Of a DNA stretch of 64,000 nt, positions 15,967 through 64,000 are shown in pieces. The stretch covers positions 13,246 through 77,245 of IMG/VR virus record IMGVR_UViG_3300013936_000013; one strand, written 5' to 3'. The notes under the pieces were generated by a model. That model was not told where the DNA came from, searched no databases, and was given only the letters and a program-made list of their open reading frames with translations. The position numbers were made by a program, and so were the translations under genes. Every line of letters starts with the position of its first letter. The first letter of the stretch is position 1. This DNA is from a virus (taxonomy: Duplodnaviria; Heunggongvirae; Uroviricota; Caudoviricetes).

Positions 15967-16263
15967 TTAAAGTTCTAAATTTCGATAGCTTTTTTTAGAA
16001 TACTCCCCTGTACTAATAACAGCCTTCACATCGCCATAACCACCAATAGGTTTAATATTAAATAATTTATTATTATGAATTACTTTATTGTTCCACCAGC
16101 TTTGATAAGAAGCACCATTAAACATTGCCCATGTCTTTCCCGCATCCGTACTATAACAATAGCAAATAATACCATTATGCTTACTTGGAATCTTATAAGC
16201 CTTAGCTTGTTTTGCGGGAACTCCTTCACTTATTAGCAGCTTCTAAAATCTCTTCCTCGTCAT
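15967..16263 (-). CDS. Hypothetical protein, MT(R/K)KRFQKL paralog 1 (code 15, 98 aa)
   Basis: Manual read-through MTRKRF(TAG)KLLISEGVPAKQAKAYKIP...; ends TAA. Confidence 0.75.
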
Positions 16264-16441
16264 CTACCTTACTCCATTTCAACTCAATATCATCTTCAAC
16301 TCTGCTGGTATCTAGCCATTCCTACCTACTCATCCCACATTTGCACATTAAGATACACAGCCGCAAAGGATAACCCATATCATCAAGCTAAATTACATTA
16401 CTTCTTTCATATAGTTTAAAGTCATGTCTGTGAATAAACAT
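16226..16441 (-). CDS. Small Cys-containing protein (code 15, 71 aa)
   Basis: MFIHRHDFKLYERSNVI(TAG)LDDMGYPLRLCILMCKCGMSR(TAG)EWLD...; ends TGA. Confidence 0.7.
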
Positions 16442-16760
16442 ATTCTCTCAAAATCGCCTCATTTACACAGACGTCATTAATAGAGAAACTAGCTCTTCTT
16501 CCTCTGTCCCAATGAAAAATCTCCTTGTAAGGACACATCTTTCTGTTCCATCCCATATTTTCATACCAATCATCATACTTCTGAATCATATGTAGCAAAA
16601 AATCCCAACAACCTTGATAAGATTCCATATCGTAACTTAAAAAAGTTTTAACAATAATAGCATCTTCTTCGCTAAAGTTCATGGGCAGCTTAAAATTGCG
16701 GGCTTCCTTTGGCGGGCAGCCAATACTTATACACAACTTTTGGAATCTCTTTTTTGTCAT
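16422..16760 (-). CDS. Hypothetical protein, MT(R/K)KRFQKL paralog 2 (112 aa)
   Basis: ORF track; MTKKRFQKLCISIGCPPKEARNFKLP. Confidence 0.75.
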   Translation of the reverse strand: MTKKRFQKLCISIGCPPKEARNFKLPMNFSEEDAIIVKTFLSYDMESYQGCWDFLLHMIQKYDDWYENMGWNRKMCPYKEIFHWDRGRRASFSINDVCVNEAILREYVYSQT

Positions 16761-16768
16761 AAATTACC

Positions 16769-17017
16769 TCACATAATTATACGAAAAGCTAATTCTGCAG
16801 CTTCTTTCTCTGTTGCACAACATTTTCTACAATTTGTTAATGCTATATTATAATAAAAATTCCAACATCCTTTATAAGACCATATATCAAATCCATTAAG
16901 GACATCAATAGCAAGCTCTCTATTAGAAGACTCACAAGATGGAACTTTCCAATCTCGAAAAGCTTTAGGTGAAACGCCTTTACTCATTAACAATTTCTAA
17001 AAACGTTTTCTTGTCAA
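16769..17017 (-). CDS. Hypothetical protein, MT(R/K)KRFQKL paralog 3 (code 15, 82 aa)
   Basis: TTG start after GGAGTG; MTRKRF(TAG 16997-16999)KLLMSKGVSPKAFRDWKVP. Confidence 0.75.
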
Positions 17018-17103
17018 ATAAACCCACTCCTTTTCTTGAACAAATAGTCAGACAACCATCTGCTATAATCCTCACTAGTCCATTTGCGGTTTCCCTACCT
17101 CAC
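17014..17103 (-). CDS. Possible 29-aa micro-ORF (code 15)
   Basis: GTG overlaps upstream TGA and its TGA overlaps the downstream TTG; MR(TAG)GNRKWTSEDYSRWLSDYLFKKRSGFI. Confidence 0.4.
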
Positions 17104-17423
17104 TGACGCGATGTACCTACGTCATCCGCTTCTTCAATTACTATTGATTCAGCATAAGTTTCAATAATAGATGCTTTCATAATCTTATAATTTTCAGCCT
17201 GAAAGGCTTCATCATTAAGATAAGTCTCTTTAGCTCTTTTCAGATAAAAAGTTAGTCCATCTTTCGCGGCATCTACGCTCCGCCATCTTTCAATTTCATT
17301 TGACCACATCTGAGTGAAATAAAAAGAATAATTGGTTCGTCTCTTAGCTAGAGCTTCACCTCTTGAATTAATAATGATATAATAAGTATCTTTTACTGCT
17401 CTTGATGACTTTGTTGAATCCAT
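17100..17423 (-). CDS. Hypothetical protein (107 aa)
   Basis: ORF track; AAGGAG RBS. Confidence 0.7.
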   Translation of the reverse strand: MDSTKSSRAVKDTYYIIINSRGEALAKRRTNYSFYFTQMWSNEIERWRSVDAAKDGLTFYLKRAKETYLNDEAFQAENYKIMKASIIETYAESIVIEEADDVGTSRQ

Positions 17424-17440
17424 AAAATCTCCTTATTGTG

Positions 17441-17749
17441 TTACTCTTCTTTTTCATCCATATCAATTTCAACTTCGGTATCTTCCATCTCTTGACCCCA
17501 AGTCTTCAAATCAATATCTTCAATCTTTGCTCGAACTTCAAGGTCATAAAGATACTGACCCATCATACTTGCCTGATGTCTCAAAAGGCTCATATTACAA
17601 GTTGGCTCAAAGCCAAGAGTTCCTGCATCATAAGAAGTAATCATATCATGCAGTTTATCATATCTAATCTTTGTCTGCCAGTATTCTGCGGCGAACCTAG
17701 CTTTATAGCTTCCATCGACCATTGCCGCAATAGTATTTTTAAGTTCCAT
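17441..17749 (-). CDS. crAss001_48-like phage protein
   Basis: YKARFAAEYWQTKIRYDKLH...FEPTC...LLRHQASMMGQYL..LEVRAKIEDIDL matches the family pattern as I recall it. Confidence 0.6.
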   Translation of the reverse strand: MELKNTIAAMVDGSYKARFAAEYWQTKIRYDKLHDMITSYDAGTLGFEPTCNMSLLRHQASMMGQYLYDLEVRAKIEDIDLKTWGQEMEDTEVEIDMDEKEE

Positions 17750-18113
17750 TTTTATTTCCTTTCTCTGTATCAACTGCTTTTTTCATGCTGTCTTCAAGCT
17801 CATGTGCCCCAGTCAGCTGCTCTAGTACTGTATAAAAGTGCATTTTTTCATTACTTGCCCATCGTCTCCACCATAGAGGGTCTGTATTTGGCTCGATAGG
17901 ATCTCTAGGCTTAAGGCGCGCTAACTCATCAACAGCCGCAGCATATCTAAAATAGATACTATCAAATCCAAAAGCAAGTCTTTCTGCAACCAGCTTTCGA
18001 TGCACTTCTTTAGGAATAGTTACATTTGGATTTTCTTCTCTCAATGCTTCCGCAAACTTTTCATAATTTTCAAGGAGTTCATTAAATTCAGGATTGGTAG
18101 TTCTTTCGTTCAT
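17739..18113 (-). CDS. Hypothetical protein (124 aa)
   Basis: ORF track; AAGGAG RBS. Confidence 0.7.
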   Translation of the reverse strand: MNERTTNPEFNELLENYEKFAEALREENPNVTIPKEVHRKLVAERLAFGFDSIYFRYAAAVDELARLKPRDPIEPNTDPLWWRRWASNEKMHFYTVLEQLTGAHELEDSMKKAVDTEKGNKNGT

Positions 18114-18717
18114 TTTTCAAAATCTCCTTTGCTTTTACCCAATTCGTCTCAATAGCTCTTGTCATTGAATTTTCAACCTTAATTTGACAAGCCCTCATGG
18201 CACTAAGTGCGGTAGTATGGCTTACAGGAGTAACACCAGCACAGCAATAAGCATCTACAATGATAGGCACATTAGGCATTTCTGCCTTCAGCAGCATTGC
18301 ATTACTGATAACGCAAATATCAGTGCAAACACCAATCAAAGTAATACTCTCAATATCAAGCCCGCCAAAATCAGAATTATAGCTCCAAATATACTCACTT
18401 TCAGGATTAAAATATTCCATCAAACGAGTTGAACCAAAAGTAGGCTTGTCAAAAGTATTATCTTCAGTCACAAAAGGCTTCAACTCATCAATAATCTCCC
18501 AGCCTTCGGTCTGATAAATACAATGCGGAACAGGTAGGTTCTTGCCTTCTTGAGTCTCAAGGTAGTTGTCGAAATGGGTGTCGCGAGTGAAGAAGACAGC
18601 TCCATCCCAATTCTTTACTTTATCAACAACCGCAGGTACAATCTCTCTTGCTTCTGGCGTACCAAGACAACCAGTAATGAAATCATTCTGCATATCTACA
18701 ACAATAAGAATTTTCAT
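18088..18717 (-). CDS. pncA: Nicotinamidase (isochorismatase family)
   Basis: IVVDMQNDF (catalytic Asp), TRDTH and PHC metal ligands, FDKPTFGS, GVCTDICV (catalytic Cys). Confidence 0.9.
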   Translation of the reverse strand: MKILIVVDMQNDFITGCLGTPEAREIVPAVVDKVKNWDGAVFFTRDTHFDNYLETQEGKNLPVPHCIYQTEGWEIIDELKPFVTEDNTFDKPTFGSTRLMEYFNPESEYIWSYNSDFGGLDIESITLIGVCTDICVISNAMLLKAEMPNVPIIVDAYCCAGVTPVSHTTALSAMRACQIKVENSMTRAIETNWVKAKEILKNERKNYQS

Positions 18718-18729
18718 ATTAAACCTCTC

Positions 18730-19491
18730 TTAGTCCCAATTACAATTCGGATTATACATAGGCATCGGCAACAGCTTAAAAGTATTAGCATTATGCATCT
18801 TATCAATGCGGGCGGCAGTAGCTGTATCGTTACCAAAATCTCCAGTTCGGATGTAGCGGTCAAGGAACTGATAAGTAAAACCGAAATTATCTTCATCACT
18901 CTTATCAGTCAGACCATCCGCAGGAATCTTCTCAATAAACTTCTTAGGAAGACCCAGCTCATAGCCAATCTGCTTAACTTCAGTGACAGTCAACTTACCC
19001 AGAGGACTAAACTGACCTGCGCCATCGCCAAACAAAGTTGCCCAACCAACATAATCTTCAGAATAATTACAAGTATTAGCAACTCGACCATTCACGCTCT
19101 GAGCAACCATAAACAGAGTTGCCATACGAAGGCGGGCAGGCAGGTTAGTAGCAGCATTAGAGCTAAGTTTAATATCATTAGCCACAAGTTCCTCAGTCAG
19201 ACTATCATAGGCTTCGCCAATATTAATATCCATATAATCAATATCAAGATACTCACAAATCTCTACCGCAATATCGCTGTCCTTCATGGTATCATTAGGC
19301 ATAATTACGCCAAAGACTCTGTCCTTACCAAGAGCTTCACAGCACAGTGCCGCAACGATGGTAGAGTCCTTACCGCCGCTCATACCTACGACCGCATTGC
19401 AATCAGAGCCATTCTTACGGAAATAGTTACGAATCCAAGTAACAATCTCATCCTTAGTCTTCTTAGCATCAAAACTATAAGGTCTAATCAT
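18730..19491 (-). CDS. nadE: NH3-dependent NAD+ synthetase (no glutaminase domain)
   Basis: VVGMSGGKDST PP-loop, NLPARLRM, VANTCNYSE, GWATLFGD, LTVTEV, SDEDNFG; 253 aa. Confidence 0.92.
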   Translation of the reverse strand: MIRPYSFDAKKTKDEIVTWIRNYFRKNGSDCNAVVGMSGGKDSTIVAALCCEALGKDRVFGVIMPNDTMKDSDIAVEICEYLDIDYMDINIGEAYDSLTEELVANDIKLSSNAATNLPARLRMATLFMVAQSVNGRVANTCNYSEDYVGWATLFGDGAGQFSPLGKLTVTEVKQIGYELGLPKKFIEKIPADGLTDKSDEDNFGFTYQFLDRYIRTGDFGNDTATAARIDKMHNANTFKLLPMPMYNPNCNWD

Positions 19492-19547
19492 ATTTCTTAA
19501 TCTCCTTTATTTATCTTATAATTTATTATACCATATTTTTTATAAAA

Positions 19548-19581
19548 ATAAAAGGGTAAATTATTTAATTTACCCTTTTAT
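19548..19581 (-). terminator. Intrinsic terminator between macrodomain gene and nadE, overlapping the nadE promoter
   Basis: ATAAAAGGGTAAATT...AATTTACCCTTTTAT with a T-run on the minus strand; TGGTATAAT -10 at about 19525-19533. Confidence 0.7.
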
Positions 19582-19586
19582 ATTAT

Positions 19587-20045
19587 TTAATCTAGTTTCC
19601 AGAGTTCACAATGGACATCCTTAAAAATTTCTTCAATCATAGGTTCAACGACGCTCCAATCTGCGCCTCCCCGCACACAACCAATCTTATAAGGCATAGC
19701 TACTTTACTATTGTCCTGTTTAGCGATTGCGGCAACCGCAGATAGTGCGAGCTTTAGAGCTTTGATATTTGTGTACTGCCCGCCATCATAGCCATAATTA
19801 TCTTGAGCAAAACAATTTACAATGGTTCTATTAGGTTCAACCTTAATAAACTGAGCCTGACCAAGTAAAGAGGTTCCTAGCCCTACTGACCGCTCCCAAA
19901 GACTCATATATTCCCAATAAACATCAGGATAGCGTTCTCTAACTTCTTTAGCAACGCCGCTTGCCATCTTACCTTTACAATTCACCTGATGACAAATATA
20001 TTTTGCATCAGTATCAAAAACATTACCAGTTTTAATTTCTACCAT
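19587..20045 (-). CDS. Macrodomain ADP-ribose hydrolase (Poa1p/DarG/TARG1-like)
   Basis: GNVFD, ICHQVNCKGKMASGVAK, IVNCFAQ, AMPYKIGCVRGGADW. Confidence 0.88.
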   Translation of the reverse strand: MVEIKTGNVFDTDAKYICHQVNCKGKMASGVAKEVRERYPDVYWEYMSLWERSVGLGTSLLGQAQFIKVEPNRTIVNCFAQDNYGYDGGQYTNIKALKLALSAVAAIAKQDNSKVAMPYKIGCVRGGADWSVVEPMIEEIFKDVHCELWKLD

Positions 20046-21556
20046 TAAAATGCGTATCCCTTTCCATTTTTAATGCTCTTAAAAGTATTCAAAGTCTCTC
20101 GAACATTCTGCAGAGTCTGCTCTTCAACCATCTGGCTATTGCGATAAACAGGATCAAGCCAATTATAAGATTCAATAGCATCCCACTGCTCCTGATTCAA
20201 TCCGTCCTGATAAATAAAATGTCCTTCCTTAGTATCAAAACTTACATTACACAGACCCTTAAGACTCTTCTTGAAATTGTCAATATCAGTTTTAGGGTTC
20301 TTAAAGATAGGAACTTCTTTGCCATTAATGATTCCATAGGTTGCCTTAACCGCCATACCAAAAGTGTCACGAGTAAAAGGCTTCAGGGCTCCATCCTGCT
20401 CAATGCACTGCATAGAAAAAGAACCAACACCAAGACTAACATTATTGGCGGCAAAGCCCTTACTCTCCAACTCCTTATAAATAGCTTCACACCGCTGGAT
20501 AGTAATAGAATCACCGTACAGAGCCTTTACATGAGAATCAAGAACTTTATAACCCTTGCTATTAATGGTTCCGCCAAAAATATCCCACAAATGATAAACA
20601 GTCTGAGTGACAATATCAATAGGATTACCAGAATCACCACGAATCAATAGGGTGCCATCATGATTCATAATTTCGTCCTTTAACTGCGGCAGAATGTTAT
20701 CAACCATATTCCAATAGTCATAAGAATCAGAAACCATAGAGAAGCTAGAATGCGGGTACAGCTGAGTCAGCGCACGACGGACAAAAGAAATCTCATCTCC
20801 ATCAACCGCCGCATTAGAACACATAACACTATGTTCGGTACTAATTGCACCAAACGCCACAGGCTCTTTAGAACAGTCGCAATTATACATTTTCTCAAGG
20901 TAAGGAATAGCAGGAACAGTTGCAGTATTAAGAAAGCTCAAGCACCAACCCGCACTAGACTTAATTGCGGATTGCATGCACTCCTGACCGCGGAAACTAA
21001 AATCACCCAGAGCTCTTGCATGAGGAACATTATCTTCAACAGTCATGTCGTAATACTTATCGACAATATCACGATACAGAGAACCAACTGTGGCAGAAAT
21101 CATAGGATGCCACAACTCAGAACTCATAAAAGACTCCAGAAACTGCGGAACCCATGCAAAATCAGGATGAGTATTGCTCATTTCAAGGAAAGGCACGTGA
21201 ATAGGGCACAGAGAACCTTCGGGCAGAGCACGAATTTCAACAGGCAGATAGCCCAAATCATGCAGAGCCATAATCTTATTAATATCATACGCGGTAGAGC
21301 CAAGGGTATTATCAAGCACGTGCTGATATTCCTTCTTTACCTTATCCGCAGGCTGATTAAAGAAATTCTCATTAAAGTAATCAATCAGATAGTTCTTACA
21401 AAAAGCCTGAATGCCAAAGACGACAACACTATCAACACCGTCCAGACGACTCATTCGAGGAGTAAAATAGCTCACCAGCTTAGTAGTGCCTTCAGGGAAC
21501 TGCTGGGCATGAGTAGTCTTATAAAAATCACACATCAGCATAGGATTAATATTCAT
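20045..21556 (-). CDS. NAMPT-fold phosphoribosyltransferase (nicotinate- or nicotinamide-using; Namat-like candidate)
   Basis: CDFYKTTH, GDFSFRG, STEHSVM, VSDSYD, IRGDSG, YGDSIT, TRDTFG, K-S-KG motifs; 503 aa; TAA overlaps next ATG. Confidence 0.9.
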   Translation of the reverse strand: MNINPMLMCDFYKTTHAQQFPEGTTKLVSYFTPRMSRLDGVDSVVVFGIQAFCKNYLIDYFNENFFNQPADKVKKEYQHVLDNTLGSTAYDINKIMALHDLGYLPVEIRALPEGSLCPIHVPFLEMSNTHPDFAWVPQFLESFMSSELWHPMISATVGSLYRDIVDKYYDMTVEDNVPHARALGDFSFRGQECMQSAIKSSAGWCLSFLNTATVPAIPYLEKMYNCDCSKEPVAFGAISTEHSVMCSNAAVDGDEISFVRRALTQLYPHSSFSMVSDSYDYWNMVDNILPQLKDEIMNHDGTLLIRGDSGNPIDIVTQTVYHLWDIFGGTINSKGYKVLDSHVKALYGDSITIQRCEAIYKELESKGFAANNVSLGVGSFSMQCIEQDGALKPFTRDTFGMAVKATYGIINGKEVPIFKNPKTDIDNFKKSLKGLCNVSFDTKEGHFIYQDGLNQEQWDAIESYNWLDPVYRNSQMVEEQTLQNVRETLNTFKSIKNGKGYAF

Positions 21557-21574
21557 AAATTTTATACCTCTCTT

Positions 21575-22408
21575 TTAAATTCTGCAACTTGCAATCATAC
21601 TCTGTTCTGCGGGAAAAATAAGAATATTTGCATTTCGTTTAGTAAGAATACTATCAGTAGTATAAACAACATCAATTAATCGTTCATCAGTAAAGATTTT
21701 ACCCTTATTCCCATCAAGAATACTATCTTCACAGTGAGTAACATACATATCAATGTCTCCTGCGCCGGCAGCCTTTAGAGCCTTAGCGCTATAATACATA
21801 GTCCCGCCATAAGCACAAATGTCATCAATCATCAGGACTTTTGGACGAATCATTGTTTTTAAAATGTCTTCTCCAACAACCTTAAGCCCCTTAATTTCGC
21901 CAGTATTCCAATCACGAATTTTATCTCCATGCAGAACAGGTTTATCACAGCACTGATGGATTGCGGACTCATAACGCTTCATAGCTCCTGCATCTGGGAA
22001 ATAAATAACGTCAGCACTGCTACAAATAATAGCTTTCTTAATTGCATTAATGGGCTGATAATTAATACAATTATCAAGTAGTCCAACGGATACGTCACTA
22101 TGAGCATCAAGCACATGAATCTCTGCGAAACCCACAGCATTTAACATTTTTGCAAAATACTTAAGAGTAAAAATATCCCCCTTATGAACTCTATCCATTC
22201 GAGCATTAGGGATATAAGGCATATAAAGAACAGGTTTGTATCCGCGGCTCTTCATATACTCGCCAATCATACAAACGATAGGAAATTCGCTCATTTCATG
22301 ATAATGCCAACTAACAACACCATCCATTGTCATAGAAGGATTTTCCTTCAAAAGAGGGGTTCTATCAGGAAACTGACCAATATCAATACCTCGTGTGTAA
22401 ATCATCAA
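21575..22408 (-). CDS. Ribose-phosphate pyrophosphokinase family protein (Prs / Adps-like)
   Basis: MPYIPNARMDR, LDAHS, FPDAGA, KIRDWNTG, IDDICAYGGT, VTHCE, TTDS. Confidence 0.9.
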   Translation of the reverse strand: MMIYTRGIDIGQFPDRTPLLKENPSMTMDGVVSWHYHEMSEFPIVCMIGEYMKSRGYKPVLYMPYIPNARMDRVHKGDIFTLKYFAKMLNAVGFAEIHVLDAHSDVSVGLLDNCINYQPINAIKKAIICSSADVIYFPDAGAMKRYESAIHQCCDKPVLHGDKIRDWNTGEIKGLKVVGEDILKTMIRPKVLMIDDICAYGGTMYYSAKALKAAGAGDIDMYVTHCEDSILDGNKGKIFTDERLIDVVYTTDSILTKRNANILIFPAEQSMIASCRI

Positions 22409-22605
22409 ATTCCTCCCATATCATGCGGATCTGTAACCCCATCGCGCTCACTAGCTGAGGTCTTCCGCATCATCACAATATCATGTTCTGCTCGTTCATC
22501 TGCATCATGTGAAACACTACACATTGCAAAAACAAAGAAATAAACAAAAGCAACACCAGCAAAGATTGACAACCAAATCCAATTATCCATTAGCCATTTA
22601 ATCAT
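22405..22605 (-). CDS. Small single-TM membrane protein
   Basis: MIKWLMDNWIWLSIFAGVAFVYFFVFAMC; TGA overlaps ATG of the Prs-like gene. Confidence 0.6.
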   Translation of the reverse strand: MIKWLMDNWIWLSIFAGVAFVYFFVFAMCSVSHDADERAEHDIVMMRKTSASERDGVTDPHDMGGI

Positions 22606-22759
22606 TTTTATCCTTCCAATCATTATTGATAAATTCATCAACAAAAACAATTACCCAACAGATACAATAGAGAAGTCCCATAAAAGCAAAAGCAAAAACC
22701 ACTGCGGCTACGAGACAAATAATAATATAAATAACAAAAAGAATGAAAATATTAACCAT
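22598..22759 (-). CDS. Small hydrophobic membrane protein (53 aa)
   Basis: Manual translation MVNIFILFVIYIIICLVAAVVFAFAFMGLLYCICWVIVFVDEFINNDWKDKND; overlaps both neighbours. Confidence 0.55.
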   Translation of the reverse strand: MVNIFILFVIYIIICLVAAVVFAFAFMGLLYCICWVIVFVDEFINNDWKDKND

Positions 22760-23078
22760 AATACTTTAACACCTGTTTCTTAATAAACTGTTTTAATTTT
22801 GCGGTATCGAGCTCTCCCGGAACTTCAACATCAGCCGCAGGGAAATAAACGACCTTAATCGCGTGTTCCTGACAAAACTGAATTGCTTCCCAATCTTCAC
22901 CAGACTGATTGCCATCCCAAAAGATAAGGCACATATCCGCATCAGATTGCAGCCCCATCCGAACTTCAGTAATTTTTTCGCCGCAGAGTTCACACGCATC
23001 TTTAACCCAATTCATTGTGCGCAACATATCTGCGGTTCGCGCATGATTGAATCGAAAATGTTGAATATCAAATTTCAT
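22752..23078 (-). CDS. Hypothetical protein, possibly a truncated SLOG/YspA-like nucleotide-binding domain
   Basis: ADMCLIFWDGNQSGEDWEAIQFC...IKVVY resembles the SLOG IAFWDG.S.GT motif. Confidence 0.45.
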   Translation of the reverse strand: MKFDIQHFRFNHARTADMLRTMNWVKDACELCGEKITEVRMGLQSDADMCLIFWDGNQSGEDWEAIQFCQEHAIKVVYFPAADVEVPGELDTAKLKQFIKKQVLKYYG

Positions 23079-23565
23079 CAGGCTCTTCCTTTCTATAAAG
23101 TTCTTTTTGCTCTTGATACCAATTCAAAGTTGAAGAGGGGCAAATACAGCCGCAACAAAACCAATCACATTCCATAGAACATTGACAACTTTCATCTAAA
23201 CAATATGGAATTTGAACTGGCTGTTGATGAGTTGTATTTGTAAGCTCCCATTCTTTCGCTAATTGAATATTATAATTATTTACAATCCAATAATAACGAA
23301 AAAGAAATTTATGTTCTTGATATTCTTTCTTTTGTTCATCGGTATATGGAAAATATGCTTTCCACATATGTTTCCCATTAATAGTCCAATCTTCCTCTTC
23401 TTTTGGTCGTTCAACAATCCAACCTTGCTTTTCAACTTTTTGAGCTTCCGCTTCAGAATGAACTGTTTTTGTTTTAAAAGGGTCAGAAATATGAGCTAAA
23501 ATACAATGGTCATTCCAAGCCAAATCAGAAAGCAAAGATGCTGAACCAAGTGGGGTAAGTGTCAT
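23068..23565 (-). CDS. Hypothetical protein (165 aa), first gene of the leftward block
   Basis: ORF track; AAGGA RBS; divergent promoters at about 23595-23662. Confidence 0.7.
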   Translation of the reverse strand: MTLTPLGSASLLSDLAWNDHCILAHISDPFKTKTVHSEAEAQKVEKQGWIVERPKEEEDWTINGKHMWKAYFPYTDEQKKEYQEHKFLFRYYWIVNNYNIQLAKEWELTNTTHQQPVQIPYCLDESCQCSMECDWFCCGCICPSSTLNWYQEQKELYRKEEPDEI

Positions 23566-23697
23566 ATTTATTCCTTCTTTCTTTTGATAATTTATTATAA
23601 CATTTTTTTATAAAGTTATCAATGGGCAAATTTTTGAATTACTGAAAAAAATATGATATACTAGAAATAAAAAGGAAGAAAGGAGATTTTTTATTAT

Positions 23698-24927
23698 ATG
23701 GATGACGCTTATAATAATAAAAATCTAGTACTAAGAGATGAGGATGATGAAGAAGATCCCTCAAATGACTTAGATTATGTAGACTAGAGAATTGAAGACT
23801 TAACAGAGACAGAAACTAAAAAATCTTCTACTAAGTTAGATTATTCTCTTTAGACAAAAGAAGAACGCAATGCTTTAGTAACAAAAATTATTGCGGAGAC
23901 TCCGCCTGAGCAACTTACACCTAAATACTTGGAGATTTTGGCAGACTACATTGTATTCGCTATGGATAAAGAAGAAAGAAAAGGAAAAAAGACTCTTACT
24001 CCAAATAGAATGGTTACAATAAATAAGCGGGAAACCTCTTATGAAGGGCTTGTAGCTAAGCTAGAAAATGGAGAAGATGGTATTTATGGAATGATTTCCG
24101 ATTTGGGAAAAAATATTCTGTTTACGCCAAAGAATGAGATTACTCAAGCTGATATTGATGAAGTTCCAGGACTTAAGGAATTACGCGATAATATTCAATA
24201 GCTTGAAGAATAGGAAAAGCTAGCCCGCGGCAAACGTAAATATCTTTTAAAGAAATAGATTATTGAGATGCGGCAAGATTAGTATGTTCTTAAGAATGAA
24301 TTTAGAAAGCCTATTCATGTTATGAATGTCTTTAAAGGTTTTAATCAAATTGATTTTGATGAACATATTACAATTAATGATGATGGGACTGTATCAAGTG
24401 ATGGTATTATTTCTTTCTTTAATCCTAAACATATTTCCGCACTTTTATGTAATTACTCCAAATTAAAAGAAAATGCTTGGGGCGTATTTGAGAGCGATGG
24501 ATATTACATGATGGAAGATCTCGATCGCTTGATTGAATAGACTCTAAAAGATAAATACCCGCTTTACTATGACCTTTTGATTTATAAGATTGATGGCAAA
24601 GCTAACGCAGAAATTTAGTCTTTACTTTTTAGAGATCACCATATTAAACATTCTGTTGAATACATTTCCTGTCTTTGGCGCAATAAGATTCCTAAGCTAT
24701 TGGCGGAATAGGCACAAGAGAACTATATAATGTGGTACTATACTACTCAAGAGAAGGGTAAATGGAAGAAATGTGGTCGTTGCGGTCAAGTAAAACTTGC
24801 ACATAACCGCTTCTTCTCTCGCAACAATTCTAGTAAAGATGGCTGGTATAGTATCTGTAAAGAATGTAGAAATACTAAAATTCCTAAATTTTCTATGGAC
24901 GAAATGCCGCAAGAAGAAACTTGCTAA
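23698..24927 (+). CDS. Putative transcription regulator (helical/HTH-like C-half plus C-terminal Zn ribbon; code 15, 409 aa)
   Basis: AAGGAG RBS; 9 in-frame TAG; ends TAA; CGRCG...CKECR Zn motif; preceded by TTGAAT-17-TG.TATACT. Confidence 0.8.
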
Positions 24928-49625: not shown

Positions 49626-49628
49626 TCT

Positions 49629-54409: not shown

Positions 54410-54415
54410 GACTTC

Positions 54416-54459
54416 AGTGGGCAGATGGTCTGTTTTGGACCATTTGTCCACTTTTTTTT
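54416..54459 (+). terminator. Intrinsic terminator
   Basis: AGTGGGCAGATGGTC...GACCATTTGTCCACT plus T-run. Confidence 0.75.
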
Positions 54460-54497
54460 TGATATATTTTTAGTAATATATCAAAAGGAGGAGTCAA

Positions 54498-55007: not shown

Positions 55008-55035
55008 AAAATAAGAGATAAAAGGAGAGAAGGAC

Positions 55036-57624
55036 ATGGCAGTAGGAAACAATTTATATCCACCAATTATAGCAACTTATATGCCAGCTTTCGTTAGAAC
55101 ATCTCCTTGTAAAGTGTATTTCTCTCTATCTTCTTTTAATTCCCCAGAAGATATTATGAATGTCTAGATTACAGTATCTAATATTAATACTAATGAAAGT
55201 GTATTAAGAAAGAGTCTATATCCTTCTGATATAAAAATTAGTTAGCTTAATATTGATACTGCAATTTAGACAGATGAGAAATATTACGTTGTAATTAATC
55301 CTGGAGATGTACAATAGTCAGCAGATGGAACATCTGCATTTGAATTAAATCAATTTTATAAAGTACAATTAAGATTCACTGCGGTTGGAGCTGAATAGCC
55401 ACCAGAGACCAAGATCGCCGCATGGCTTCTTAATAATCAAAAATATTTTTCTGAATGGTCAACTGTCTGTTTAATCAAAGGCATTGAATAGCCAATAATT
55501 AATTTACATGGTTTAGGAACTTCTAGTTCTCAGACTATTTTTACTACTTAGCTTTAGGCTATTGTAGGTTCTATGAGTTATTCTGCAAACACAAATGTGG
55601 AGACAGAAACTCTAAAGGCTTATTCAATCCAAATAGCGACCGCAGACGCACCAAGCACTTATGCTGTTGATAGTGGAACTGTTTATACAGATAGTTTTAA
55701 TCCTAATGAGATTAATTATCCTCTGAAATATGAACTTAAAGAAGATTAGCCATATATTTTGACTTTTACTTATGTTACTAAAAATAATTATACTGCAACT
55801 AATACCTATAAGTTTATTATTAATGCTTATAGTATTGAAAGACTTGATGCTACTATTACCGCAGAGCTTAATGAAGAAGAAGGCTATATCTCAGTTAATA
55901 TTAAAAATGATGAAATTATTAAGTTCTATGGCAATCTATTGATTCGCCGTACAAGTAATTTAAGTAATTTCGCTGAATGGGAAGATATTCATATCATTAA
56001 TGTTAAAGATATTTCTGCTCTTGATGTAACTTGGAATGATTTTTCAGTTGAGAGTGGCGTTTGGTATAAATATGGATTTTAGAAAATTTCTAACAATATT
56101 AGAAGCCCATTAGTAAAGATGAAAAATGCTATTCTTGCAACTTTTGAGTATAGTTTTTTGAATGGCTCTGATAGACAGCTGAAATTAAAGTTTGATGCTA
56201 GTGTTAGTTCTTTTAAACCAACTGTATCAGAATCTAAAACAGATACTTTAGGTAGTTAGTATCCTGTCATTCGCCGTAATGGCAAAACTAATTATAAATA
56301 GTTTACTTTATCTGGACTAATTTCTAGTTATCAAGATGAGTTTGGTAATTTTACCACAAAAGATGAACTATATGGTGAAAGTAAACAAGACTATGCCGAT
56401 TATAATAGTAATAATGATATTAATGAGCAATATGACTATATTTTAGAAACAGCATTTAGAAATAAGGTATTATCCTTCTTAAATGATAACACTGTAAAGC
56501 TATTTCGGTCTCCAACTGAAGGAAATATTCTAGTTAAATTAATGAATATTTCTCTTTCGCCAAAAGAAGAATTAGGACGAATGTTATATACATTTTCCGC
56601 GAATGCTTATGAGATAGATACTGTTACTCTTGATAATTTGTTTACTTATAAAGTAGTATCTCAAGGACAAGAGAGTCATACTATTTCATCAGTTTTCTTT
56701 GGACTTGGATAGATTCAGACTTCAGTTAAAGCTGGAGCTGATATTATTCAATTAATTTAGAATAAACTGAATAAAAAAGCTAATACTGGTTTTGATGAAA
56801 AACTTAATTATTTAAGTAATATTAAAATTAGCTTTGAATCTGACCCTGTATTATTAACTGAAGGCATTGCGGGTCCTGAGGTAGTAAGAAATAGCTTTAA
56901 TCCAACAAATAGTATGTCTGGATATTTAATTTCTCTAAATGGTAATTCTATTATTGTTAATTAGAAGGGCTATTATGAATTGAGTAATACTAATATTACT
57001 TCATTCTCAGTTCTATGTGACTGCAAAGTTACTTTAGATTATGTGTATAACTATACTGAAACCGCAAAAGAAGGTAATCAAGAAGCTGTGAGAATTGAAT
57101 ATACTAATAGAGTAGGACAACTGCAAGGCATTTACAATTCTACTCAAGATATTATTTAGAAGATTTATACTAAATATTTATAGAATCAAAAGAGCTTTTA
57201 TCAAAAATTAGTTGCGGTTAATGGCATCTCAATCGAAGCTGACCCGCATACAGTTCTCTATATTTAGGATGCTTTTGACTCTCAAGAGTATAAGCATGAA
57301 ATTGGTGACACAAGTATTCTGACTCTATATGATGCGGATACGGCAATTTCTAAAATGCATATTTGCGGAATTCACCTATTACCATTCTAGGGTGAAAACT
57401 TAAATAAAATGAGACTAGATCAATACTACGACACTCAAGCTACCGCTGCAAACATTGAAGAGATATTGAGTCCTATTGATAGAGGAGTTTATACTATTGA
57501 TTCTCAGCGTATGATTTATTATCGTGGTTAGTGGTTAGATTTTCCCGCAGATAATATCTTAGATGTACCTGTTGAAGCATTAATTGATTATCATTGTGAA
57601 GTTTTGAAAGGAGAATATTTATGA
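55036..57624 (+). CDS. Baseplate/distal tail protein with Ig/FN3-like domains (code 15, about 862 aa)
   Basis: AAGGAG RBS; read-through to a TGA overlapping the next ATG; DFSVESGVWYKY and LFRSPTEGNILV motifs. Confidence 0.65.
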
Positions 57625-59627
57625 TATATGAGTATCTAAAAAATTCTGCTTTCTTAAAGAAAATTGATGAAATGCCATTAAAAGAACAATTTGTTAAAAT
57701 TATTGTTCTTGACTTTTTAGAGAATCCTATTACAGAGATTCAAGGAAAAGTGACATCAGGAAGTATTAACCTTAATGGCTCTTCTGCGGTGCGTCGAACC
57801 GCGAACTTAAGTATGGTAGCAGATGATGCTAATAATGATGTGAGAAGTGTAAATAATCTTCTTTCTATCAATAAAAAAATTAAACTAGAAATAGGATTTA
57901 CTAATATGACATCTGATTATTAGCAATACCCTATTATCTGGTTTCCTTTAGGCGTTTATGTTATTATTACTCCATCTATTGTACATAATAATACTGGAAT
58001 TAATATTTCACTTCAACTTAAAGATAAGATGTGTCTATTAAATGGAGACTGTGGGGGCGCTTTGCCCGCATCAATCACTTTCCATGAAACTTCTTATGAA
58101 GATGATAAAGGTAATACTATTATTGAAAGAACCAAGGTTTACAGCTTAATTCAAGAGTTAGTGAATCACTGGGGCAAAGAGTAGCTTGGTAAGATTATTA
58201 TTAGTGATGTAGATACTCGTATTAAGAAAGTAATGAAGTGGAAAGGTTCTACTCCATTATATATGGGCACTATTGCTTCTGAAGATGAAGTTTAGTATGA
58301 TGTAACCACCAATTTAGAAACCGCAAAACAGCAATGGGGAACTGCTTTTAAAACCTATGAAACTTAGCAAGATGTAGGTTATATCTATACTGACTTTGTT
58401 TATACTGATGACTTGATTGGTAATGCTGGTGATTCAGTATGTACAATCTTAGATAAGGTTAAAAGCTATTTAGGTAATTATGAATATTTTTATGATATAG
58501 ATGGAAACTTTATTTTTTAGGAAATAAAGAATTATTTAAATACTTCAAAGGCAACAGTAGATATTTAGAATTTATCTAATTCAGATTACTTGACAGATTT
58601 TTCTAATGGTAAATCTGTTTATACTTTTGATGAAAGTAAATTAAATACATCTTTTACTATGAATCCTCAATATAATATGATTAAAAATGATTATATTATT
58701 TGGGGCATTAGAACAACATCTGATAACGCTAAAATCCCTATTCGATATCATCTTGCAATAGATAAAAAACCGCAGGTAGGCAATACTTATGTAGTTTATT
58801 TATATGAAGATGATGACGTAACAAAAGCTAAGAAACTAATTGAATATGATAATCTGAATGATTTTCCCTCTAAGGGAACTTATGGATTATATTATTTAGA
58901 CAAAGCTACTTAGAAGGTTTATACTTGGATTAATGGTTATGTAGAATAGACAAAAGGTAAAATTAAAACAATAGTAACTAAAGATTGGCGTACTGAGTTA
59001 TATCTTGCGGGAACCAATGCTAGTAACTTGGGACTAAATTCTAATGATTATTATAGTGAGCTTTAGAATGAATGGCCTAGATTATATGATTTAGAGAAGC
59101 AAGAATTTAAAGAATCTGTATTGGATGACCCAACAAGCATCAATTACTTCTTAGACTTTATTGATTCAACTGCCGCAATAAGCGAATTAAGCATTGGGAA
59201 TATTGGTAAAAGAAGTAAAGTTATTTCTAACAACGATATTAATTGTATTTTTGCATCTGAAATTCCTAATTTAGTTTTAATTGAAAAAGGGCAAGAAGAT
59301 ACAGCAGAAAGAGTGCAAGAATGTCAAGCCGCAGGGCAGGATTTTATTTAGGTTTCTAGTACAATTTATGCTTAGCTTAGTGGTGGTGGACAGTCGTATC
59401 CCGCATATTCACAGGTTAGAGAACTATTGTATTAGTACACTAATTATAATGAAAGTATTTCTATGTCTGCAATTCCTGTATATTATCTTGAACCTAATAC
59501 TAGAATTACAGTAAGAGATGATTCAAGCAAGATTTATGGTGATTATGTAATTAAAACTATTACTTTACCTCTTGATATTTCTGGTACAATGAATATTCAA
59601 GCAACAAAGGCATTAGAGAGATTCTAA
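57621..59627 (+). CDS. Baseplate hub / Tal-like tail protein (DUF5048-like; code 15, 668 aa)
   Basis: GSINLNGSSAVRRTANLS, YFYDIDGNFIF; three fragments in one frame; ends TAA. Confidence 0.65.
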
Positions 59628-59642
59628 TAAAAAGGAGATAAA

Positions 59643-60323
59643 ATGAGTTATAATATTGGACAATTTAGACGTGCTTAGCTAAGCATTGCTAATTATCGTA
59701 CTCTATTGAAGTATAATATTACAACAGTAACAAATAATAATACTAATGTCACTTTCTTAGATACAGCAATCTCTTTAACTAGCGGTTCTGTATTAGATAA
59801 TAAACATTCTTATTATTTGCGGTTTACTGTTAAACAAATGAACTCTGTATAGAATTTTTCTTTGTAGTTACAGAACTCTAACGACTCTTAGACTATTGAA
59901 GACTATACAGTTCCCGCAGGTACTGGTTCTACTACTTTTGATATTGTGTTTACTCCAAATGCAACATATAATTTAATTGTTTTTGTACTTGCAAGAACAA
60001 CAGAAGATTATAATGTAATTGAAAATTCTCAATATGGTAGAATAATGGATATTACAGTCAATGAGAATAATATCTATTTAATGACTAATATTATTGATAC
60101 TCTTGCTTCAACTTATGGCTTAACTGAACTTACTCGTATTGGAGTCCAAGGACCAACAGGTTTAATGATGAGTATTAATGGAGAACAAATTAAAATTGGT
60201 AAAACTGGCATTTATGAATTAAATGATGTTAATATTAAAATAACTTATCTAGGTTTTGCATTAAAAGATAACGTATTAAATGTAGATGGTTATGATAATT
60301 TTATTTTAGATTTTGAGTATTAA
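59643..60323 (+). CDS. Tail-associated hypothetical protein (code 15, 226 aa)
   Basis: AAGGAG RBS; C-terminal RIGVQGP...SINGE.IKIGKTGIYEL domain. Confidence 0.7.
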
Positions 60324-60337
60324 GAAGGAGGATTAAA

Positions 60338-62518
60338 ATGTCAGAAAGTTTCTATGGCGGAAAGGCAGGAACCCCTTTCGTAATTGCAAAATCTTATAAT
60401 AGTGTTAATGCTATGATTGCGGATTTCGCTAAAGGTCCCGCGTTAACAGCAGTTCAATATGGCGAGCATGTTATTATCAATACTGATGATAAAAACAACA
60501 GTAATAATGGTGCACTATATCGCCGCGGATATGATTATAATAATAGTATGGGCGGCGCTATTTATGTTGGCACTATTGTTGGACCTTCCGGCAAGTCACC
60601 CATGTTTGAACTTACCACTCTTGAAAATATTAAAGATATTACTTTTAAAGATTCGGATGAAGTAAGACAAGCAACTGGAGCTTGGAATGTTTCTAATAAA
60701 AGTTTAATTCCAGGCAAAACTGATTCTGAATTTAATGATGATATTTCTTGGAGCTATATTACTATTCGTGATTAGTATGGTACAGATACAACAGCATGGG
60801 TTGGCATCAGAATTCCATATCATGTTCTTGAAATGGATGCATAGAGCGTATCTGCATACTACAATAGAGATAAGGAAACCGCAGATTTTAAGAATGTAAG
60901 TTTAGTTGAGCGTGATGACGACCAAGAACATCCGTTCTATTCACACTGGTTTGTGCGAATTCCTAAGGGTATTAAAGGTGACGCTCTAAAGAATTTTAGA
61001 GTTATTGAAGCTAGCGATGTAATTCAAGATTATGAAGGCAAAACTGATGATATTAATAATCATCGCAAGGTTTTAGTTTATGATTACTATTGCTATGATG
61101 CAAAAGAAAATGGTGAACCAAAAACTCTATATCTTGGCGATTTCAATATGATTGATACTATTAATCTTGCAGATGATGGTACTTTTACTATTAATTATAC
61201 CCATGATAATACTGTTACTTATGCAAAAAAAATTAAATGGGTTACATCAGTTTCTCTTGCGGCAGATGGCACTTTTATTACAAAGTTTAATGATGGCACT
61301 AATTATACCACATCTTTAACTTGGGTGAAGAATATCTTATTAGCTAATGATGGTACTGTTACTTTTTAGTATTCTAATCAAGTGGATGTAGTTAAAAAGA
61401 ATCTAATTAAGTGGATTAATTCAGTTAGTTTGGATAAGACTACTGGAGTTTTTAATATTGCATTTAATGATTCTACTAAATATGATGCATCACTTACTTG
61501 GGTTAAAGATATTTTGCTAGCCGCAGATGGCACCTTAACTTTTAAGTATACTGACTAGGCAGACGTTGTAAAGAATAAATTAATTAAATGGATTACTTCT
61601 ACGACATTAAATAGCACTACTGGCATATTTCATATTGATTATAATGATGGTTCTAATTACGAAACTACATTAAAATGGATTAATGGAATTTCGCTTGCGG
61701 ATAATGGCACTATTACTTTTACCTATACTACTGGTGACTCTGAAACATTAGAGAACAAAATTAAGTGGATTACTACCACTGAATTAGCAACCAATGGTAC
61801 ATTAACCATTAATTATAATGATGGAACCAAAGAAGTTTTTGATAAAAAGATTTAGTGGATTACAAATATTACTTTAACTGATAAAGGTGTTTTAACTATT
61901 AATTATAATAATGGTACACCAGCTTTCACTAAGAATTTAGTCTGGCCTATAAGGATCGAGTTTGATTCAAAAGATAGTGAAGCTAATCCTGGCGCTCAAG
62001 TTATTAAGGTAACTTATAACAATGGTACTATTGAAACTATTGGTCAACCGCTTAACTCAATTATGCGCATGGAAGTGAATCCTGCTAATTATCATTTATT
62101 GATTTTATTTACTAATCCATCTAAACGTGGTACTGTAACTTATGATGGCGTTACAGGATGGGTTGATTATGGAGCAATTAAAGATTATGATGGATTGTTT
62201 GTCGGACCTATTCTTAGTGATGCTACTATTGTTAGCCTAAAGAATGCTACGGTTTCTGCTTGTATTACTTATCTAAATACTGCTTATCCAACTGGGTTAA
62301 CTGGTAGTAATCAAGGAAAAGTATTAACTATTTCTCAAGATGATGATACAGTACACACTTTCTATGGTTTTGATTATGATGCAAATAAATGGAAGTATCT
62401 AGGCTCTTTTGATAAGACTACTATTTATATGTGCGCAGCAAGAGAGACAGATACAGATTATGAGTTGAAAAAAGAGCGATTAGCTGTGGGTGGTATCTGC
62501 TTTATTATTGAGGATTAA
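60338..62518 (+). CDS. Tail fibre-like protein with about 10 tandem beta-repeats (code 15, 726 aa)
   Basis: GGAGG RBS; MSESFYGGKAG; three fragments in one frame; KW(I/V)..(..)L..DGT..I.Y repeats. Confidence 0.7.
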
Positions 62519-62520
62519 TT

Positions 62521-62787
62521 ATGAATAATTATTATAAACAGATAGTGGGTCCAATAGCTAAAGGAACTGATATTTGTTCATTATTAAGTGCGGATGCTAG
62601 TAACTTTAATGCTATCACTAAATTAGGTATTTAGTCTAAAGAAAATCATTCTTTTAGCATTAATGGTAAGTCTTTTGCGGTTGGATCTACTGGAATCTAT
62701 GAAACTCAAAAAGGTGTTAATATTAACACTTGTATTGCAGAACAAGATGAAGATGAATTTACAATCATTGATTGTATCTGCGAATAA
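62521..62787 (+). CDS. Small tail-associated protein, paralogous to the C-domain of 59643-60323 (code 15, 88 aa)
   Basis: KLGI(TAG)SK...SINGKSFAVGSTGIYE aligns with RIGVQGP...SINGEQIKIGKTGIYE. Confidence 0.7.
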
Positions 62788-62789
62788 AT

Positions 62790-62840
62790 AAATTGGGGTT
62801 TATGATGGAACTAAAATCTATCATAAACCCCAATTTTTTG
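62790..62840 (+). terminator. Intrinsic terminator ending the tail operon
   Basis: AATTGGGGTTTATGAT...ATCATAAACCCCAATT plus T-run. Confidence 0.8.
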
Positions 62841-62996
62841 TTTTTGTGAAGAAGTTTTCATTTTAAAAATAATCAGGTACTTCCTGTTAAATTTTCAAAT
62901 TTTAATTGAAACTTGGACAGAGACTTTTTAGAAATTTTAATTAAAATTTATATACTTATGCAAGGGACAAAAGAAAGGAGTTTTAATTAAAATTTT

Positions 62997-63452
62997 ATGA
63001 ATTATTATAATCCAAGTTTTTATCCTTCTTATAATGGAAATATTTAGATACCACCATCTCAATACTATCTCAATTAGCAACCTCAACAGGTAATGAATAA
63101 TCTATCGGCAAATGGATTAAATGGCAAATTAGTAGATAGTGAAGATATGGCTAGAGTAACTGAAGTTCCTATCGGTGGATATGGAATTTTTCCAAAAGCA
63201 GATTTAAGTGAAGTATATATTAAATCGTGGAATTAGAATGGCACCACAAGCATTACAACATTTAAACCTTGCTTTTCACAATAGTAGAAAGAAGAAAACT
63301 CTTTAAATACCGATATGAGCACTATTATAGAGAAGATTAATTTGTTAGAAAATAAGTTAGATGCGGTTTTAGCTTCAAAATCTTAGGTCTAGACTGAAGT
63401 GAAAAAGGCAGAACCCGCAAGAAAGGACAGTAACAATGCAAGCAAATATTAA
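62997..63452 (+). CDS. Hypothetical protein with Gln/Asn/Pro-rich N-terminus (code 15, 151 aa)
   Basis: GAAAGGAG RBS; 7 TAG including tandem CAA TAG TAG; ends TAA. Confidence 0.75.
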
Positions 63453-63684
63453 TAATCCAATGTAGCTCTTGAGCTTTATCAAGAAAAATCCTAATCCTTC
63501 TCAATTTGTTTATAATATGGTTCAAGAAAGTATGGGCTAGAATCCCTTGTTTGCTAATCTTTTAGCTCTTGCTAAGGATAATAATGGGCAAGAAATAGAA
63601 AAAGTTGCCCGCAATATTATGACTGAGCAGGGCTATGACTTTGATAAGGAGTTTAATAATTTCAAACAAATGATGGGATTATAA
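63436..63684 (+). CDS. Hypothetical protein (code 15, 82 aa)
   Basis: AAGGA RBS; MQANINNPM(TAG)LLSFIKKNPNP...; ends TAA. Confidence 0.7.
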
Positions 63685-63722
63685 ACTCTAAAAAATAAAC
63701 ATATAATATATGGAGGTACTTT

Positions 63723-64000
63723 ATGTTTAATAATGATGGTTATAGTTTAAGTGATATCGCGGCAGTTACCGGAGAAAATGGCTTCAATGGTAATGGAGGT
63801 GCCTGGTGGATTATTATCTTGTTCCTATTTTGTTTTATGGGCTGGGGTGGTAATGGTTTTAATCGAGGAAATATGCCACCTATGAACCCAACTGGAACAC
63901 CAGCAACCGCAGGAGAAGTGTAGAATCAGTTTAACTTTGCCGCATTAGAGCGCCAGAATAATGAAATTATTGAAGCAATTCGTCAGGGTGTTTATGACAC
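63723..64000 (+). CDS. Gly-rich membrane-anchored protein, partial (code 15)
   Basis: GGAGG RBS; GGAWWIIILFLFCFMGWGGNG; continues past TAG at 63921 to the window end. Confidence 0.7.

Follow-up and report, generated by a model that had tools for sequence, protein, structure and literature searches.

Partitioned use of TAG as a probable glutamine codon in a 141-kb phage genome

How can a phage with in-frame TAG codons throughout most of its structural genes be expressed in a host that presumably uses TAG as a stop, and why does a large part of its genome contain no such codons at all? The question is raised by a 64,000-nucleotide (nt) stretch of viral DNA, hereafter the window, which corresponds to bases 13,246-77,245 of the single-contig virus record IMGVR_UViG_3300013936_000013 (141,245 bp). 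The record has a CheckV completeness of 100% and its contig ends overlap, which indicates a circular assembly. The original prediction for this window described a sharp partition between genes that need TAG read as glutamine (Gln) and a region that translates identically under genetic code 11 (standard) and genetic code 15 (TAG = Gln). Our analysis upholds the partition, finds a suppressor transfer RNA (tRNA) elsewhere in the same genome and indicates, with high though not complete confidence, a code-15 gut phage in a standard-code host in which early genes are code-neutral, late genes tolerate TAG and abundant proteins avoid it. By its portal, capsid and tail genes, the phage appears akin to the large siphophages of Bacillota, and its portal protein shares 30% identity with those of Enterococcus phages EF1 and VRE9 and 38% with that of the gut phage phAss-1. 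In IMG/VR, 315 portal relatives were recovered, three of them at 97-98% identity; about one-third of the relatives are recoded, and recoded and standard-code relatives are closely related. A search for relatives of the capsid protein among bacterial genome contigs, made for host assignment, found none.

Distribution and identity of in-frame TAG codons

In the window, the combined length of stop-to-stop open reading frames (ORFs) of at least 100 amino acids (aa) is 15,580 aa with code 11 and 28,631 aa when TAG is a sense codon. Using our own simple gene caller (codon log-odds with greedy overlap resolution), coding density increases from 0.67 under code 11 to 0.86 under code 15, with no gain under code 4, in which TGA is sense (0.66). 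Comparison of codes 11 and 15 along the sequence, proposed with the original prediction and made in 5-kb bins, confined the gain to the late bins, where density rises from 0.28-0.72 to 0.88-1.0, the bins at 1-21 kb remaining nearly unchanged. The window accordingly divides into zones that differ in strand and TAG content. Specifically, the minus-strand zone at 1-15.5 kb (30 genes, 3,054 codons) contains a single in-frame TAG, an artefact considered below, and the minus-strand zone at 17.1-23.6 kb (12 genes, 2,118 codons) contains none, so that 42 genes and 5,172 codons are devoid of any real in-frame TAG. By contrast, the plus-strand zone at 23.7-64 kb (30 genes from 23,698 on, 12,933 codons) contains 240 in-frame TAG codons distributed over 28 of its 30 genes. 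Both the expectation that nearly all morphogenesis genes require TAG as sense and the expectation that the 1-15.5 kb genes and the enzymes of nicotinamide adenine dinucleotide (NAD) metabolism lack it are thus borne out. In the late zone, TAG accounts for 38.5% of Gln-type codons (TAG, CAA and CAG together; Fisher p = 1.8e-26 versus the early zones). The CAG:CAA balance is 112:38 in early genes and 120:264 in late genes, which looks as if TAG had mainly substituted for CAG in the latter.

The lack of TAG in early DNA is frame-specific, since off-frame TAG trinucleotides do occur there (4.8-8.3 per kb, compared with 13.6 per kb). It also extends to termination: all genes end in TAA or TGA, and TAG terminates none of 46 early genes here versus 47 of 322 (15%) late genes in standard-code relatives. 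The single early TAG is an artefact of start choice: the gene concerned truly begins at 8111 (7917..8111), and the codon precedes that start. The longer version of this gene (7917..8237) was rejected, as its upstream part is non-coding and carries stops and gaps in two diverged strains, G001 and G002. Substitution patterns were likewise non-coding for ORFs 4480..4743 and 10602..10802, which end at TAG under code 11, and ruled out as genes the candidates 15456..15719(-), 16075..16419(+), 4411..4743(-) and 10503..10802(-). The early DNA of G001 and G002 is 76-92% identical to the window, and their aligned early codons include 2 TAG among 3,924 (G001) and 1 among 3,458 (G002). The late genes are much better conserved, yet exchange TAG with CAA or CAG freely. 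The early TAG-free and late TAG-rich partition is therefore real and kept in both strains, and the same pattern of TAG readthrough holds in 22 relatives.

To identify the amino acid, 15 late genes were aligned at the codon level with up to 80 related loci, the distant relatives being mostly standard-code. Among the three near-identical strains (portal 97-98% identical), 43 of 47 TAG changes are to or from CAA or CAG. In distant relatives, 33 of 64 TAG columns have Gln as their majority residue (K follows with 9, T with 5 and E with 4). The same is true of 16 of the 22 columns with at least 70% conservation, and three TAG columns of the portal are Gln in 67-76 of 79 relatives. When the TAG columns were compared by naive Bayes with the profiles found opposite each sense amino acid of the phage, the log-likelihood was highest for Gln (-142), followed by Glu (-197), Lys (-203), Ser (-234), Leu (-286) and Tyr (-298). 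The homolog columns, put forward earlier as the test of the glutamine assignment, hence favour Gln, as does an ordinary Gln codon that stands opposite TAG in one of three small paralogs described below. Taken together, the alignments support the reading of TAG as Gln, that is, genetic code 15.

The suppressor tRNA and its array

No tRNA gene was found within the 64-kb window, and an Rfam scan of the window at gathering score returned no match. The absence of a suppressor that the original prediction reported is nevertheless a window-edge effect, because a tRNA(CUA) gene lies in the same 141-kb genome, 62 kb past the window end; the companion claim on release factors holds for the complete genome, in which no RF-1, PCRF or glutamyl/glutaminyl-tRNA synthetase (Glu/GlnRS) catalytic (tRNA-synt_1c) domain was found. 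The tRNA(CUA) gene (99 nt, genome 139,665-139,763, minus strand) sits in an array at 137.9-141.2 and 0-6.2 kb that accounts for the 28 to 30 tRNA genes of the genome, and adjoins the genes of the phage tRNA-Gln(CUG) and tRNA-Gln(UUG). ARAGORN miscalls it as having the four-base anticodon 'taaa'. In the Infernal alignment (55.5 bits) it is a normal tRNA: the anticodon arm consists of the stem GUGGU/ACCAC and the loop CU-CUA-AA, and the variable region contains an insertion of 25 nt. The U1-A72 pair, G2 and G3 are as in tRNA-Gln, position 73 is A and the CCA end is encoded. The insertion folds as a hairpin (CCAUCC / GGAUGG) with a 7-nt loop, CUCUGAC, that is identical to the anticodon loop of the phage tRNA-Gln(CUG). 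We infer that this extra arm may preserve Gln identity for the charging system of the host.

A search for the two-loop pattern retrieved the same design from unrelated large phage contigs, with different, compensating stems, and also a UUG version. A census whose sole requirements were the CUA anticodon stem-loop, the T-loop and, between them, a long variable region yielded 89 loci with 69 distinct sequences from unrelated large phages. In 43 of the 69, the best variable-region hairpin with a 7-nt loop and at least three closing pairs reads N-U-[C/U]UG, compared with 0.4% of shuffles, and most of the remaining sequences also contain CCUCUGAAG. In one census contig (L297), the variable-arm loop is GUCCAAA, which resembles the anticodon loop of a Trp (CCA) tRNA and not that of Gln. 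In the distant recoded relatives, all tRNA(CUA) genes are of the ordinary kind, 74-76 nt long; among GenBank phages, no nucleotide relative of the suppressor was found beyond a 31-nt T-arm match, and our literature search found no published description of the extra arm.

Several other elements accompany the array. At its end lie the genes of a YqeY-domain protein (L001 322-735, minus strand; PF09424, 42 bits) and of a DUF2828/DUF7788 protein (L300 17966-19477, minus strand), and the genes flanking the array, these two included, are TAG-free. YqeY corresponds to the tRNA-binding tail of GatB, and the free-standing protein could be a putative helper of the suppressor tRNA. A full-length ROOL RNA (RF03087, 305 bits, E = 5e-70) is found inside the array (genome 3,144-3,739, minus), together with a 59-nt tRNA-like gene (genome ~139,299-139,357, minus; L001 2300-2358; Infernal 44 bits) that has acceptor, D and T arms and no anticodon arm. 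Two further tRNAs are unusual (genome 1,659-1,745 and 6,105-6,195, both minus): the first is Ser-type with anticodon ACU, and the second (91 nt, called Ile(UAU) by ARAGORN) shows about eight extra bases in the region of the anticodon loop in the Infernal alignment. A recoded distant relative, G008, encodes a tRNA with anticodon UUA, matching the stop TAA, besides its tRNA(CUA) (L097 2866-2940).

Promoters and gene content of the zones

Allowing no more than one mismatch, a scan of the whole genome for TTGACA-N16-18-TATAAT identified 57 near-consensus sigma-70-type promoters, compared with 7-14 in shuffled genomes. As many as 36 of the 57 are located at window positions 235-15,532, nearly all of them with an extended -10 TG (TTGACA-N17-TGnTATAAT); among the remaining promoters listed, one heads the operon running from 23.6 to 15.9 kb and four fall in the whole late zone (23.7-64 kb). 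The early zone (1..15532, minus strand) contains about 30 small genes, each preceded by a near-consensus host-type promoter, and the minus-strand repeat family D1, with 18 copies of CTTGACAAA-N17-TGGTATAATA all within 1,129-15,498, is this promoter. Such density at 1-15.5 kb suggests that the TAG-free zone is built for immediate transcription by the host polymerase. A second promoter type, consisting of TTGAT[T/A], an AT-rich spacer and then TGTTATAAT, heads the 17.1-23.6 kb operon and recurs through the tRNA array, with one copy about 720 nt upstream of the suppressor tRNA. In late intergenic regions, no shared non-sigma-70 motif was found; the only signals apparent there are terminators, a small number of host-type promoters and the ribosome-binding site AAAGGAG.

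Seven exact consensus promoters on the plus strand oppose the early genes (2677, 4573, 5984, 7097, 10565, 14429 and 15532). Each is followed by a GC-rich hairpin and no ORF (repeat families D6, D8, D10 and D16), and these promoter-hairpin units are candidate small antisense RNAs. The stretch at 4290-4860 is about 97% identical to G001 and G002, compared with about 90% for its flanks, and has a non-coding pattern in every long frame.

The TAG-free operon (17100..23565, minus) is served by a single promoter, 23622(-), and includes NAD salvage genes recognized by Pfam, all on the minus strand: isochorismatase/PncA-like (18088-18717), NadE (18730-19491), Macro (19587-20045) and NAMPT-family (20045-21556). 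This cluster (18088-21556) is probably an early counter-defence module. Code usage and strand switch together in the divergent promoter region that follows (23566..23697).

The first late gene (23698..24927, plus) encodes a putative sigma-like factor with a C-terminal zinc ribbon and nine TAG codons. The sigma assignment is tentative. It comes from a single PHROG family (phrog_5767 'sigma factor', E = 1.9e-52); there was no Pfam, NCBIfam or Foldseek match, and structural alignment by VIA-align to sigma-H and SigB over residues ~210-350 gave Z scores of 6.5-6.8, within background. The large terminase is encoded in two pieces on the plus strand, at 26146-26904 (5 TAG, the first at codon 18) and 27781-28767 (8 TAG); between them, following about residue 238, lies an insertion of some 880 nt (26905-27780) with an HNH endonuclease gene (27189-27695, 3 TAG). 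The near-identical strains L005 and L006, like 36 other loci, have the terminase as a single continuous ORF, and in other relatives it is interrupted elsewhere (after about residue 87, 117, 143 or 182). The insertion in our phage is likely a mobile intron, for which Rfam gave no group I match. Further along the plus strand are the portal (29317..30885, 9 TAG; phrog_2739, E = 3e-78); the major capsid protein with HK97 fold (32919..33962), whose AlphaFold model (predicted local distance difference test, pLDDT, 74) matches phage capsids and encapsulins in Foldseek with probability 1.0; a TAG-free virion structural protein (37866..38837; phrog_2729), which is a candidate major tail protein given its position before the tape-measure gene; the tape measure (40683..49625; 2,980 aa, 81 TAG, the first at codon 10); and the tail and other late genes (49711..64000), all TAG-bearing, including a 1,492-aa protein with 22 TAG and a single-pass membrane protein (54498..55007) with 4 TAG, the first at codon 11. 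Strong intrinsic terminators, each a hairpin with a T-run, are located after the capsid gene (33963-34056), the candidate major tail gene (38838-38907), the gene before the tape measure (40585-40682), the tape measure itself (49626-49710) and a 75-aa gene (54410-54497).

TAG load differs among these genes in a way that relatives reproduce. In the major capsid gene, TAG makes up 0 of 18 Gln-type codons here and 1 of 147 in ten recoded distant relatives; the corresponding figures are 1 of 10 and 1 of 132 for the scaffold-like protein, and 0 of 7 and, in two recoded distant relatives, 1 of 16 for the candidate major tail protein. Conversely, the sigma-like gene uses TAG for 9 of 18 (a share of 0.5; 0.39 in relatives, with TAG in 12 of 12 recoded ones), and the terminase pieces reach shares of 0.45 and 0.53 (0.30-0.37 in recoded relatives, with TAG in every one). 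The original prediction had emphasized TAG within the first 20 codons of many recoded genes. The positions it named are correct for the tape measure, the membrane protein and the terminase, but such codons are not enriched over chance, being present in 7 of 32 late genes versus 9.0 expected under uniform placement (P = 0.85). No N-terminal enrichment was detected over the first 10 to 50 codons of late genes, along which TAG is evenly placed. Elsewhere in the genome, TAG-rich genes encode two homing endonucleases, a RuvC-like resolvase, a reverse transcriptase, a protein of 2,192 aa and an endolysin. The endolysin gene, outside the window, has 8 TAG in 225 codons, beginning at codon 5. The reverse transcriptase gene (L300 7778-8980, genome ~125,023-126,225, plus; phrog_1423, E = 5e-71; 3 TAG) adjoins a tail-protein-like gene, which suggests a diversity-generating retroelement.

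Between the two TAG-free zones, a conserved non-coding spacer (15420..15966) with divergent consensus promoters (15488 minus, 15532 plus) is the boundary between the early zone and three small paralogous genes; relative to G001 it shows few substitutions and no codon periodicity. The paralogs, all on the minus strand, share the start MT[RK]KRF-x-KL, in which x is TAG in A and C and Gln in B. Paralog A (15967..16263, 98 aa) and paralog C (16769..17017, 82 aa, TTG start) each have one in-frame TAG, at codon 7, and the TAG-free paralog B (16422..16760, 112 aa) has an ordinary Gln codon at this position. The TAG of paralog A is kept in G001, with substitutions rich in third positions upstream of the sole alternative start; paralog C has no counterpart in G001 or G002, so its support comes from paralogy. 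Of the "several" minus-strand genes at 16-17.1 kb that had been thought to need TAG as Gln, this accounts for two, and a third candidate, 16226..16441(-) with 2 TAG, is left ambiguous.

A proposed reading, its rivals and known systems

The codon statistics, the glutamine reading, the tRNA and the promoter map are the established ground on which we infer expression timing, charging by the host and competition with release factor 1 (RF1). The phage would use code 15 and its host the standard code, the tRNA(CUA), presumably charged by host enzymes, being the sole code-change element carried. Early genes, behind strong host-type promoters, would be translated before the suppressor builds up and perhaps also afterwards; as they would have to be read both without and with it, we propose that they avoid TAG as sense and as stop, and are thereby code-neutral. 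Genes needed later (those for the sigma-like factor, terminase, portal, tail, membrane protein and endolysin) would tolerate TAG as a nearly neutral third Gln codon, and we propose that TAG allows full-length products of such genes only once the suppressor outcompetes the RF1 of the host. The proteins needed most, namely the major capsid, scaffold-like and candidate major tail proteins, may avoid TAG because its decoding costs yield. Several points weigh against this reading. The terms early and late derive from promoters, gene content and strand, and the simplicity of our gene caller makes short genes, as in the early zone, uncertain. Host-type promoter-like sites in the late block, at 39,977 and ahead of the portal and sigma-like genes, make the timing of transcription uncertain. 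The suppressor tRNA itself lies behind host-type promoters and may be made from the start, in which case any delay would be one of accumulation only. Finally, the base after TAG, compared with that after CAG, is only marginally biased (A somewhat enriched, T somewhat depleted), with no clear anti-termination context.

Two of the alternatives to be weighed concern decoding. That TAG is a true stop, the late genes being fragmented, decayed or expressed through rare readthrough, would fit the short ORFs into which code 11 breaks them, but readthrough restores full-length portal, terminase and tail genes and the 2,980-aa tape measure, with strong family matches, and TAG columns are conserved Gln positions. 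A matching tRNA(CUA) is encoded and the situation is the same in 22 relatives; the comparative data refute this explanation, to which we assign a negligible probability. Reading of TAG as another amino acid (Leu, Ser, Tyr or Glu) is suggested by the long, class-II-like variable arm of the suppressor, with its 25-nt insertion, and by A73; ARAGORN is unable to type the tRNA and offers Leu or Phe, and a host without GlnRS would first charge it with Glu. Against this, homolog columns, codon swaps between strains and likelihoods all point to Gln, U1-A72, G2 and G3 make the acceptor stem resemble that of tRNA-Gln, and the loop presented by the extra arm is a Gln anticodon loop. On the column likelihoods we reject the four identities for the long-arm tRNA, and we regard a reading other than Gln as highly improbable.

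The other alternatives accept code 15 and differ on why TAG is where it is. The placement could be an evolved timer, as in the adaptive gate of the Borges et al. model, in which positive selection in regulators and lysis genes holds back late transcription, packaging and lysis until the tRNA reaches a threshold, or it could be a passive by-product. The genes richest in TAG include those of the sigma-like factor, the terminase and the endolysin. In the sampled recoded relatives, the sigma-like gene is TAG-rich in 12 of 12 and the terminase pieces in 15-16 of 15-16. The promoter-like sites of the late block mean that translation could be the control point, and these features leave room for a timer. 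On the other hand, TAG is evenly spread without N-terminal bias, its share is similar (0.3-0.6) in most late genes regardless of role, and it swaps freely with CAA and CAG between close strains. Homing endonuclease genes, which have no need of gating, are equally TAG-rich, and the sigma-like label of the presumed regulator is itself uncertain. The even placement, the free exchange between strains and the abundance of TAG in selfish endonuclease genes favour the by-product, and we regard a timer as possible but rather unlikely. Slightly more doubtful is the idea that the main late-gene clock is translational and not transcriptional, the late block being transcribed early and its products, from the sigma-like factor on, waiting for a tRNA that would keep Gln identity via its CUCUGAC arm, perhaps with the help of YqeY. 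The layout might instead record mosaic ancestry, with a late module recombined from a recoded phage and an early module from a standard-code phage, and thus reflect history and not a present constraint. Homologs of the early genes occur only in the three near-identical strains, compared with late genes common to 315 relatives; recoding is patchy in the clade (about one-third of relatives), and off-frame TAG is rarer in early DNA. Yet early genes also avoid TAG stops (0 of 46 versus 15%), as expected alongside a suppressor, their TAG-free state persists across 10-25% nucleotide divergence of the early region, and TAG-bearing genes are scattered in other modules (two of the 16-17 kb paralogs, endolysin, RuvC, reverse transcriptase). 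We consider such an origin improbable, and the combination of code-neutral early genes, TAG-tolerant late genes and sparing of abundant proteins remains our preferred explanation.

The classical amber suppressors of the supE type provide one comparison: there, a tRNA-Gln body bearing the anticodon CUA competes with RF1 at UAG and inserts Gln. The phage tRNA differs in having an additional hairpin in its variable region, with a 7-nt loop identical to the anticodon loop of the phage tRNA-Gln(CUG). The principle of a suppressor tRNA competing with RF1 is cited by Borges et al. (10.1101/2021.08.26.457843), who detected no suppressor in 60% of recoded phages (10.1101/2021.08.26.457843); as standard tRNA finders miscall the long-arm form, this may account for part of the suppressor-less cases. 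For annotation, the practical consequence is that code 11 shreds the late half of such genomes.

As the original prediction had noted, the gating of late and lysis genes by recoding is an established proposal: it has been published in general terms (10.1101/2021.08.26.457843), and recoding is also known in the clade of the present phage (PMC10607447). In the model of Borges et al., early genes are standard-compatible and structural and lysis genes are recoded, driven by a suppressor tRNA (10.1101/2021.08.26.457843). The phages they describe resemble ours in reading TAG as Gln in a standard-code host, in encoding a suppressor tRNA and in having TAG-rich structural and lysis genes, and early and code-change genes are standard-compatible here as in the model. 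The optional 'code change module' of release factor and aminoacyl-tRNA synthetase (aaRS) genes seen in some of their clades has no equivalent here, neither release factor 2 (RF2) nor an aaRS being found in the complete genome. Our phage further belongs to another lineage, the ~140-kb siphophage type akin to Bacillota phages; its early class is marked independently by dense consensus host promoters, and its capsid gene avoids TAG.

Closer in ancestry is phAss-1 (Babkin et al. 2023), which is recoded and encodes tRNA-Sup-CTA but no aaRS, recoding being present in some divergent members of the wider group (PMC10607447). The phAss-1 clade and our phage have in common a genome size of ~136-141 kb, a tape measure close to 3,000 aa long (3,149-3,209 aa in relatives; PMC10607447), a large tRNA set, no aaRS, a tRNA-Sup-CTA, and TAG in virion genes as well as in some genes for DNA enzymes. 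The loop motif of our long-arm tRNA(CUA) recurs in a long-arm tRNA(CUA) of phAss-1, which there adjoins an ordinary tRNA(CUA); phAss-1 possesses three suppressor genes, with a pair at 62.4-62.6 kb off its main cluster, compared with one here, inside the main tRNA array. Members of the proposed genus Phassvirus share 80-86% nucleotide identity (PMC10607447), and the protein identity to phAss-1 of 38% for the portal and 52% for the capsid places our phage in the wider clade and not in this genus. Promoters, the early/late partition and the tRNA arm are not analysed by Babkin et al. (PMC10607447). Block-wise dual coding, with standard-compatible blocks alongside stop-reassigned ones, has also been described for crAss-like phages (Mgcod, 10.1101/2022.06.29.495998; Yutin et al. 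2021, PMC7886860), but these are Crassvirales of Bacteroidota and offer an analogy only.

The phenomenon is therefore already described, and this genome is a divergent new example of it. To the known systems it adds a promoter-defined early class, a conserved avoidance of TAG in the capsid gene, a null result for enrichment of TAG near N-termini, and a suppressor of unusual form together with its place in the genome. Within one genome, TAG is avoided early, both as sense and as stop, used freely late and avoided again in the most abundant virion proteins, a pattern that separates timing constraint, near-neutral drift and translational cost, which published surveys have pooled, and that provides a clean, internally controlled example of a phage living with two codes.

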